This document shows, one piece after another, positions 2,506-26,542 of a DNA stretch of 32,000 nt. The stretch lies in the NCBI GenBank assembly GCA_019056805.1, contig DXJG01000009.1:90001-122000 (forward strand), given 5' to 3'. A program made the position numbers and the translations under genes. The notes below the pieces were generated by a model, which was given only the letters and a program-made list of their open reading frames with translations, was not told where the DNA came from and did no database searches. This DNA is from Candidatus Baldrarchaeota archaeon (GTDB lineage: Archaea; Asgardarchaeota; Baldrarchaeia; Baldrarchaeales; DXJG01). The first letter of the stretch is position 1. Every line of letters starts with the position of its first letter.

Positions 2506-3663
2506 CTAACAATTTGACTTATAAACAATTTCTAAAAATGTTTCAGCAACTTTATCCCATCTAAATCTATTTGCTAGTTTTTTAGAGTTTAATCCCATTG
2601 TTTTACATAAATTCTTATCGTTAAGCAGCATAGTCATGTACTCCGTAAGTTCTCTCACACTATCATTACCAAAGCAAAATCCATTATATTTATGTTTTAC
2701 AAGTTCAATAACACCGCCATTATTTTGAGCAATAACGGGGACACCTGAGGCCATAGCTTCTAAAACAGCAATACCTAAATGTTCGTGGTTGGCAGGGTGA
2801 ACATAAAAACAACAATTCGAATATAAATTAAACAAATTGCGTTCATTAATTCTACTGTAAAATCGTACTTTTTCTTCTAACTTTAACTTCTTAGATAGTT
2901 GAACGTAAGGAGTAGGGTCCCCTCTACCTCCAATGATGAAACATCGATATTCTTCATTTTTTAATGAAGATAAGGCTTTTAATAAGATATCAAATCGTTT
3001 ACGCGGTTCAAAACTGCCAACAGAAAGAATTAAAGGCTCATCAAAAGAAAGATTGTTATTTCCGTTCTTAACATTATTTAGCAAAATTTTTTCAACATGA
3101 TCACTTCCAGCATAAAGAGGGGTTGCATGTATTCCTTCAAATTTCCTGTATAAACTTGAAATCCACTTAGAATTACTAAAAAAGTAATCAACATAACCAA
3201 TAAATCTCTTCCATAAATAGTATTCAGCTACATACCTAGAAAAGTCTCTTCTATAGCTTTTATAGCCCTCAGGAGATATTAACCACCCAAAAGGCGGGTT
3301 ATGCAAAACATAAGCAATTTTTACGCCAATCCGTTTCTTGACAAGACAAGCAGCAGGAAGATCTTTAAACTTATGAACAACTAATGTAACATCTTTTTCA
3401 TTGTTAATGAGCCTTAAACATTTTTTTGAAGCTTCAAGACTATAAGAAAAGATGTTTAAAAAAGGATCATCAGTCACGGGATAATCTAAAAACACAAAAT
3501 CTACACCCTTAACAGAAAATAAAAATTTATCAAACTTCTGAGGAGTAACAATATAACTATCTACTCTTCTCTTCTTCAATGCCTTTGAAAACTCAACAAT
3601 CCACCTTTCCATACCACCTGGAAAGAAATCAAATGAAAGATTAATTACCAACAATATAATCAT
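2506..3663 (-). CDS. GT4-family (GT-B) glycosyltransferase
   Basis: GGMERW N-terminal motif, VGSFEPRKRFD, EHLGIAVLEAMASGVPVI (EX7E motif). Start moved from 3777 to ATG at 3663 because the longer ORF overlaps the divergent gene. Confidence 0.9.
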   Translation of the reverse strand: MIILLVINLSFDFFPGGMERWIVEFSKALKKRRVDSYIVTPQKFDKFLFSVKGVDFVFLDYPVTDDPFLNIFSYSLEASKKCLRLINNEKDVTLVVHKFKDLPAACLVKKRIGVKIAYVLHNPPFGWLISPEGYKSYRRDFSRYVAEYYLWKRFIGYVDYFFSNSKWISSLYRKFEGIHATPLYAGSDHVEKILLNNVKNGNNNLSFDEPLILSVGSFEPRKRFDILLKALSSLKNEEYRCFIIGGRGDPTPYVQLSKKLKLEEKVRFYSRINERNLFNLYSNCCFYVHPANHEHLGIAVLEAMASGVPVIAQNNGGVIELVKHKYNGFCFGNDSVRELTEYMTMLLNDKNLCKTMGLNSKKLANRFRWDKVAETFLEIVYKSNC

Positions 3664-10353: not shown

Positions 10354-10821
10354 ATGGATAAAACTCAACGTATAAATCTATTCAAAAAATGTTTGAAAAA
10401 CGTAGCAGAAGAATCAATGGGCGGACTTATACATTTCTATACAAAAGAAGCTTTACAAGGACCTCCAAACGGATGCTTTGTTCAGTTTGCAGGTGGAATC
10501 GAAGGATTAGCATGCGACATACCCATAATATGGCTTTCAAAAGAAGAAATAGAAAAAATCAGAAAAATACCAGAATTTTTTGAAGCAAAAGAAATAGGAT
10601 CCTTCCAAGCATACTTCGGAGTCAGCGACGAAGACATAGAAAAAATGGCAAACCTAACAGAAAAAATATTTACAGAAATATACAATCTACCGCCCAACTA
10701 TGAAATAATCGCCGAATACACAATAAATCAAAAAACAGGAATCAGAATATACCCAGATGGGAAAGAAGAAAAAATAAACTGGATAAAGGAATCTCTACTA
10801 AGAAAACTAAAACTAATCTAA
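10354..10821 (+). CDS. Hypothetical protein
   Basis: 155-aa ORF with A-ending codons like neighbouring plus-strand genes; GAGGG upstream; FVQFA motif; no confident family. Confidence 0.65.
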   Translation: MDKTQRINLFKKCLKNVAEESMGGLIHFYTKEALQGPPNGCFVQFAGGIEGLACDIPIIWLSKEEIEKIRKIPEFFEAKEIGSFQAYFGVSDEDIEKMANLTEKIFTEIYNLPPNYEIIAEYTINQKTGIRIYPDGKEEKINWIKESLLRKLKLI

Positions 10822-10945: not shown

Positions 10946-10958
10946 GTAAAATTTAAAT
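10946..10958 (+). promoter_or_regulatory. BRE/TATA for sRNA-A
   Basis: GTAAAA followed by TTTAAAT (10952-10958), about 24 nt upstream of the GGGGG at 10982. Confidence 0.5.
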
Positions 10959-10981
10959 GTTAAGCCATATAATTGCTATTT

Positions 10982-11068
10982 GGGGGATGAAGAACCGCCA
11001 CTAATGCTGCAATCTTCCAGAATGAGATGTTTAAAGAAAGGGTGATGACCGCACCCTTTTCAGACCCC
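10982..11068 (+). ncRNA. Box C/D-type K-turn small RNA candidate (sRNA-A), atypically long
   Basis: Terminal stem GGGG/CCCC, box C AUGAAGA (10987-10993) and box D CAGA (11061-11064) in exact K-turn register. Internal C' GUGAUGA (11042-11048) lies 12 nt before box D. D' box is ambiguous. Confidence 0.6.
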
Positions 11069-11134: not shown

Positions 11135-11695
11135 ATGATGAAAATGAGAAATAATCTTAAGAGTAAGAAGCTTAAGCGAATTTCCTTTGATAGGAAATAT
11201 GCTATTGATATTTTACTAGGTATTAAAAGGGCTACGATAAGAAAGACAAATAAGGGGTTAAATTCCGGAGATGTTGTAGAATTTTATACTAGGGGCCCTA
11301 GGGGTAGGTTAATAGGTTGGGGGAAAGTAAAAAGGATAGTTAGGAAGAAAGTTTCGGAGTTAAGCGATCGTGATATAATGCTTGAAGGGTTTAGTGACCG
11401 GGGAAACCTTTTGTCTGTTCTTTCCTCTCATTACAAGGGTATTCAAGATGAAGATGAGATATTTCTAATAGAGTTTGAACTTGAAAAGCCGAGCATCTCC
11501 TTTTCTAAGGAAGTTTTTTCAAAAATTGCTAAGTTAGCCTTAGATAGAGATTTGAAGCTTTCTCAAAGTGACAAGAAATTGCTGGAATATTTTCTAAAAA
11601 CGTCCAAAAAAGATAAAATTATTCTTAGCACGGATCTAAGGGATGTTATACGTAAAATATATGTTAAGTTAAGATCTGAGGAGTTTTCTTCTTGA
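11135..11695 (+). CDS. ASCH-domain protein with C-terminal helical extension
   Basis: ISFDRKYAIDILLGIKRATIRK (GxKxxTxR), GDVVEF, LSDRDIMLEGF, IEFEL; about 70-aa extra C-terminal domain. Confidence 0.85.
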   Translation: MMKMRNNLKSKKLKRISFDRKYAIDILLGIKRATIRKTNKGLNSGDVVEFYTRGPRGRLIGWGKVKRIVRKKVSELSDRDIMLEGFSDRGNLLSVLSSHYKGIQDEDEIFLIEFELEKPSISFSKEVFSKIAKLALDRDLKLSQSDKKLLEYFLKTSKKDKIILSTDLRDVIRKIYVKLRSEEFSS

Positions 11696-13740: not shown

Positions 13741-13813
13741 TTTCAAATTTTCAGTGTCCACGGCATCAATCATCGCGTAAGCTCAGAGTCGTCGCCAGTC
13801 ATCATGTTCGAAA
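13741..13813 (-). ncRNA. Canonical dual-guide box C/D sRNA (sRNA-B)
   Basis: Minus strand reads AUGAUGA (C, 13805-13799), 12-nt CUGGCGACGACU, CUGA (D'), GC-UUAC-GC-G linker, AUGAUUG (C'), 12-nt AUGCCGUGGACA, CUGA (D, 13754-13751). Flanking UUUCGAA/UUUGAAA stem; TATA about 25 nt upstream. Confidence 0.9.
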
Positions 13814-26188: not shown

Positions 26189-26343
<155 letters not shown>

Positions 26344-26542
26344 ACTTAAACTTACTTACTATCATAGTAGCTACTACATAAGGAGGAGGGTTATGTATTT
26401 AATATTTTCTCTACCTATCTATCTCAAACATGTAATTAATCAATTTAAGGTTGAGTAATGTATTGACCTTGGTTTAAGAAGCTATATTGAATATTAGGCA
26501 TTTTCGGTAAGATTTTCGTGCTGTTGATGGTGGTGAATTAGT

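Follow-up and report, generated by a model that had tools for sequence, protein, structure and literature searches.

A long box C/D RNA in a Baldrarchaeia genus, a probable methylation guide for helix 66 of 23S rRNA

Positions 10982 to 11068 (+ strand) of a 32,000-nt window, the whole stretch of Candidatus Baldrarchaeota DNA analysed here (host genome G000, 1.92 Mb, 91% complete; contig C17), in all likelihood encode a stand-alone archaeal box C/D methylation-guide sRNA, a functional counterpart of sR21 of Pyrobaculum calidifontis (Pca). Its sequence indicates that it very probably guides ribose methylation in the large-subunit rRNA. The element is intergenic, with a 155-aa ORF that has no Pfam family upstream (ending at 10821) and an ASCH-domain gene downstream. 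It adds one predicted rRNA methylation site in a poorly known Asgard lineage, an annotation rather than a new mechanism, and a literature search on Asgard C/D RNAs found no dedicated study. The features, in window coordinates, are as follows.

10946..10959, + strand: BRE-TATA-like archaeal promoter motif; 12 of 13 positions identical in three species, against 10 of 46 just upstream
10982..11068, + strand: probable box C/D guide sRNA gene, 87 nt; shared by G001, G002 and eight metagenome contigs
10982..10993, + strand: 5' strand of the terminal G-C stem, 3-nt bulge and box C, read from the sequence; pairs invariant in the alignment
10987-10993, + strand: box C, AUGAAGA
10994..11004, + strand: 5' antisense arm, also carried by Pca sR21 and Iho sR103; site given by its top match in the proxy 23S
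11001..11010, + strand: candidate degenerate D' boxes, CUAA (11001-11004) and CUGC (11007-11010)
11009..11040, + strand: D'-C' linker, expanded and variable, in which a weak hairpin is predicted; 4 of 28 positions identical over 11013-11040
11042..11048, + strand: box C', GUGAUGA, perfect consensus, invariant
11049..11060, + strand: D guide, with predicted pairing to 23S helix 66
11061..11068, + strand: box D, CAGA (11061-11064), and 3' strand of the terminal stem; invariant
11135..11695, + strand: ASCH-domain gene (ASCH1; Pfam PF04266, E 2.7e-12), likely start at 11144

An earlier, sequence-only reading had proposed that boxes C and D both exchange U.U for A.A while keeping the G.A/A.G, G-C and A-U pairs and a 4-bp GC stem, and the sequence bears this out: position 3b.3n of the k-turn is A.A, the other pairs are retained, and G10982-85 pair with C11065-68 around the 3-nt bulge. 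The tandem G.A/A.G pairs, bulge and flanking stems that a k-turn requires are all present and invariant in 11 copies, as are the terminal pairs, so that the k-turn pairing is conserved in relatives, one of the points on which that reading could have failed; G001 has one G fewer and a 3-bp terminal stem. The 12-nt spacer from C' to box D is canonical and likewise invariant. The reported length of about 87 nt and the extra AUCUU/GAGAU hairpin (11012-16/11024-28) also stand, with 78 nt from box C to box D here and 70 and 73 nt in the relatives. Boxes of this kind had been judged hard to obtain by chance; the genome has this precise geometry at a single place and 20 block shuffles have it nowhere, a count that is weak alone for a pattern drawn up post hoc, and conservation supplies independent evidence. 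The description of C' and D' as degenerate holds for the irregular D' and fails for C', which is a perfect consensus. An Rfam scan of the element region returned no family at E <= 1.

Copies are found in three species of one Baldrarchaeia genus and in eight metagenome contigs of the G001 and G002 sequence types. Only the promoter, boxes and arms are conserved, while the linker and flanks drift. Across the three species, identity is complete (28/28) from C' through the guide and box D to the stem, 11/12 in the 5' stem and box C, 10/11 in the 5' arm and 6/6 in CUGCAA (both CUAA and CUGCAA are invariant in 11/11 copies), and it falls to 4/28 in the linker, which also varies in length, 17/66 in the 3' flank and 10/46 in the upstream stretch; the start of the ASCH coding sequence has 36/56. 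The TATA element starts 30 nt 5' of G10982, placing the predicted transcription start at or near 10982, and suggests a dedicated promoter with its start at the 5' G run. The covariance-model search that had been proposed for Asgard genomes finds one credible copy in each of the same-genus genomes that carry the RNA and no homologue beyond the genus among the 61 genomes searched, and two weak extra matches in G000 were rejected as lying inside ORFs. The same-genus genome G003 is without the RNA, but its ASCH1 locus is also absent (the genome is 84% complete), and the absence is uninformative.

Targets were sought in a proxy 23S rRNA taken from G003; G000 has no assembled rRNA genes and its own helix 66 is missing. 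A flanking-gene approach to the population's 23S recovered only 332 nt of the 3' end, and over 332 nt the proxy is 99.1% identical to a contig carrying a protein identical to one of G000. The best match of the D guide in the proxy is the 3' side of helix 66, with nine Watson-Crick and two G.U pairs, of which only eight Watson-Crick pairs are continuous. C11056 (D+5) pairs Watson-Crick with the G that follows the GAAA loop, corresponding to column 2092 of the Dennis et al. alignment and, by our count, to E. coli G1811. The 5' arm (10994-11002) also has its best proxy-23S match nearby, with nine Watson-Crick pairs at the E. coli equivalent of 1839-1847; the two sites are ~20 nt apart in helices 66-67, and their antiparallel order fits one RNA binding both. 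Two-arm scoring after Lui et al., whose threshold is 32, gave the pair a combined score of 38, a value reached by 12 of 1000 shuffled guide pairs run against 23S plus a proxy 16S rRNA (p ~0.012, a modest value). The target stretch is conserved across several Asgard 23S rRNAs, and a G-to-A change in the metagenome copy L050 breaks one pair of the 5' arm.

The sequence-only reading had called for a search of rRNA and tRNA, and for a methylation test at the base paired to C11056. That search now leads to helices 66-67 of the proxy 23S rRNA, with tRNA exons scoring lower, and the base in question is the G1811 equivalent in helix 66, where the computed pairing predicts methylation. No target as good as helix 66 was found in tRNA, 5S, RNase P, SRP or proxy 16S sequences; an 18-point match in tRNA-Leu was rejected, as it sits in an apparent intron. 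The G000 genome contains the fibrillarin, Nop5 and L7Ae genes.

Two observations concern the 23S sequences themselves. A fragment at the start of contig C6 (L059:1-345) shares no more than 74% identity with the same-genus 23S, compared with 99% for the population's 3' end; it was left out as a proxy and is probably a chimeric contig end. In the G003 23S gene (L026), A+T-rich sequence of about 580 nt interrupts the helix 69-71 region (about 2512-3094, sense strand), probably an intron with a homing-endonuclease ORF.

The irregular D' box and the 5' arm are the sole part of the RNA with some novelty. Read as D', CUAA still ends in the key A, but its spacer is 7 nt and runs into the paired stretch. 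CUGC, which Sac-sR110 also carries at the D' position, gives a 13-nt spacer, lacks the final A and places +5 at the extreme end of the duplex; in this register D'+1, +3 and +4 are mismatched and +2 is at most a G.U pair. At the 11-nt register no D' box is present. With a degenerate D' that falls outside the register of Pca sR21 and Iho sR103, the 5' arm is more likely an anchor than a guide, and we lean slightly toward a second anchor that helps to open or fold helices 66-67 over a productive second guide. A conserved non-methylating arm is known in Pyrobaculum (sR33). Eukaryotic box C/D snoRNAs provide an analogy, in that extra pairing near the methylation site, as described in yeast, boosts a short guide (van Nues et al. 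2011, PMC3116282). These extra-pairing snoRNAs have divergent C' and D' boxes (PMC3116282), whereas the Baldrarchaeia RNA has a canonical C', and unlike theirs its second arm occupies the archaeal D'-guide position and matches a guide that is productive elsewhere. It is conceivable, though we consider it doubtful, that an archaeal double guide, once symmetric, has taken on a eukaryote-like layout by drift in this genus, with a single productive D guide, an old D' guide retained as a non-methylating arm for extra pairing, a lost or relocated D' box and an expanded, structured loop that partly masks the guide with its 3' end prior to assembly. If the 5' arm is a non-methylating helper and D' is non-functional, the RNA would represent a small natural step from symmetric archaeal guides to asymmetric snoRNAs, and the example would come from the archaeal group closest to eukaryotes.

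The site is also targeted by listed guides of Pyrobaculum and Sulfolobus. Pca sR21 carries both arms in the same order, GCCGCCAGUGG as the 5' arm for 23S U2122 and UCUCACCCUUUG as the D guide for G2092, and these columns are the sites matched by the Baldrarchaeia RNA, the sR21 sites being themselves predicted (PMC4644070). The single internal difference between the 5' arms tracks the rRNA (G-C in Pca, C-G here), and D' is degenerate in both. In contrast, sR21 measures 50 nt, its loop is short and its D box is CUGA, compared with 78 nt from C to D and A.A boxes here, and the D'-like box at the sR21 register is absent from the Baldrarchaeia RNA. In the view of Lui et al. 2018 (PMC6009581), who discuss its family, sR21 arose within Pyrobaculum; as they regard it as Pyrobaculum-specific, convergence is as likely as descent, and the two RNAs may have come to the same target independently instead of being homologous. 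Sulfolobus acidocaldarius sR4 is predicted to guide the same G (column 2092; PMC4644070), with four G.U pairs at this site in our own pairing, and Ignicoccus hospitalis sR103 has the same 5' arm, with U2122 as its predicted site (PMC4644070).

The sister-family genome G004 has, at an unrelated locus (C1:57408 region; L095:1462-1530, - strand), a dual-guide sRNA of canonical form and 55 nt, whose D' guide forms 10 Watson-Crick pairs with the same helix-66 site and places +5 on the same G; its two guides match 23S rRNA at the equivalents of E. coli G1811 and about C1774. In both sR4 and the G004 RNA the guide for this G is at the D' position and the second guide differs, and these two RNAs and Iho sR103 are all short with canonical spacing, unlike the Baldrarchaeia RNA. 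A search of 301 Asgard genomes for this RNA's box-guide-box pattern gave four that have it, each time in this order, and 0 matches in reversed controls. A looser two-arm pattern run over the 301 genomes was set aside, as it returned mostly chance matches and the rRNA itself, along with two candidates without C/D layout.

Both the A.A box pair and the long linker are, by analogy, tolerated variations with archaeal precedent. The combination of RUGAAGA and CAGA, with the same replacement of U.U by A.A, recurs in Nanoarchaeum equitans sR08, 09, 14, 16, 17, 19, 21 and 23, that is, in 8 of its 26 sRNAs by our count, which are detected by RNAseq (PMC4644070); these differ in being about 50-58 nt long, with other targets and a canonical D'. 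Methanococcus maripaludis sR103 and sR107 span, on our count, 79 and 74 nt between boxes C and D (PMC4644070) and have an expanded D'-C' loop of 28-34 nt, as here, although their boxes are canonical CUGA and their targets different. L7Ae folds k-turns even where the 3b.3n pair blocks ion-induced folding (PMC4382518), and our literature search found no measured folding value for A.A at 3b.3n. The suggestion of a eukaryote-like long snoRNA is partly borne out: the RNA is a long C/D RNA, but "eukaryote-like" is overstated because its length and A.A box pair are already published for archaeal sRNAs, its C' is canonical and its arms match sites ~20 nt apart, as in archaeal double guides.

The D guide had also been proposed to pair in cis, over 8 bp, with a segment overlapping C'. 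In G000 this pairing is possible, between AAAGGGUG (11037-44) and 11052-59, or over 9 bp counting a G.U (11036-44/11052-60), and the hairpin has a predicted probability of about 1.0 in naked RNA at 37 C. It is weaker in the relatives, at -9.2 (G001) and -5.2 kcal/mol (G002) compared with -11.6 kcal/mol in G000, and the predicted fold leaves D+5 94% unpaired in G002. No compensatory, two-sided changes occur in the helix in the three species, and each relative breaks a pair; 90.6% of the pair cells remain pairable in the alignment, the strand is purine-rich, and three of the pairs are forced by the opening GUG of C', for which the guide has a CAC. A functional role for this predicted helix is neither supported nor disproved. 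The linker hairpin (-1.7 kcal/mol at 37 C and absent from the fold at 60 C) is not conserved in sequence, and the linker hairpins differ by species (4-7 bp, -1.7 to -2.9 kcal/mol); the fold of the whole RNA is unremarkable (z = -1.4).

The snR4 and snR45 RNAs guide cytidine acetylation, and RNAs of the snR4/snR45/U13 type are recognized by two pairings that loop out the target CCG. The Baldrarchaeia RNA could similarly be a non-methylating or gated RNA, acting as a folding chaperone of helices 66-67 or as a guide for another modification, with the cis hairpin closing the guide until a signal arrives. The high probability of the hairpin in naked G000 and G001 RNA, its pairable cells, the fact that the linker-side GAAAGGGUG copies the rRNA target, the irregular D', the NAT10/TmcA gene encoded in G000 and the neighboring ASCH gene all fit such a role, and we nevertheless think it improbable: the cis helix weakens across the genus without compensation, the 20-nt rRNA stretch looped between the duplexes contains no CCG, the C'-D spacer is canonical, the +5 pair is Watson-Crick, and G004, Pyrobaculum and Sulfolobus have canonical guides directed at this same +5 G. 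Still less probable is a C/D guide whose true target lies elsewhere, in the helix-25 region of 23S rRNA, SRP RNA, tRNA or 16S rRNA. The D guide does match a second 23S site in G004 over 10 Watson-Crick bp, but this site is mismatched in the same-genus 23S; an 8+2 match in the G000 SRP RNA is without a partner site for the 5' arm; and although the 16S proxy is not from the same genus, so that a better 16S match is possible, neither it nor the tRNA exons gave a comparable score. The invariant AA at 11003-04, which is unpaired at the helix-67 site, would suit a different target, while the counterparts in G004, Pca and Sac point to helix 66.

It is likewise very unlikely that the element lies in the ASCH1 mRNA 5' leader and works there as a k-turn switch responsive to L7Ae, as had been raised from the sequence. 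The two are co-oriented and syntenic in all genus-level copies, and no strong terminator separates them by a bacterial scan, which is ill-suited to archaea, so that read-through is possible. [quoted passage not shown] In the known L7Ae switch the k-turn occludes a Shine-Dalgarno site very close to it (PMC6298567), an arrangement typical of l7ae 5' UTR switches and absent here. In G004, moreover, the helix-66 guide and an ASCH gene are on different contigs, the guide being beside unrelated genes, and the closest ASCH1 homologue overlaps the end of its upstream gene without such an RNA.

For the preferred reading of a methylation guide, we infer transcription, protein binding and methylation from the sequence, its conservation and its complementarity to rRNA. 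The sRNA would be transcribed from its own BRE-TATA promoter and bound by L7Ae at the terminal C/D k-turn, with Nop5-fibrillarin then assembling as in the established pathway. The D guide would pair with the 3' strand of helix 66 in nascent 23S rRNA while the 5' arm binds ~20 nt further 3' in the same molecule, the cis hairpin presumably giving way to bound protein and to the rRNA duplex, which is stronger (-16.7 kcal/mol for guide and target against -11.6 for the hairpin). Fibrillarin would then 2'-O-methylate the G opposite C11056, as predicted by the D+5 rule.

Several further features of the window and genome are recorded here. A canonical 55-nt box C/D sRNA lies downstream of a second ASCH gene (window 13751-13805, - strand), and 9 nt of its 5' guide match 16S rRNA close to helix 34 (G004 fragment); our genome-wide C/D scans of G000 used a pattern too strict for an sRNA census. 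An intron-interrupted tRNA gene, apparently tRNA-Lys(UUU), is at about 26190-26345 (- strand); it was missed by ARAGORN, only its T-arm was caught in Rfam, as a weak tmRNA match, and many G000 tRNAs look multiply interrupted. The NAT10/TmcA cytidine acetyltransferase gene is directly 5' of an ASCH-domain gene in G000 (C9:174617-177708) and G004, and in G001 and G002 the two are on the same strand about 1.1 kb apart, domain to domain. The E. coli ASCH protein YqfB hydrolyses N4-acetylcytidine, and by analogy NAT10/TmcA and ASCH may therefore be a writer-eraser gene pair.
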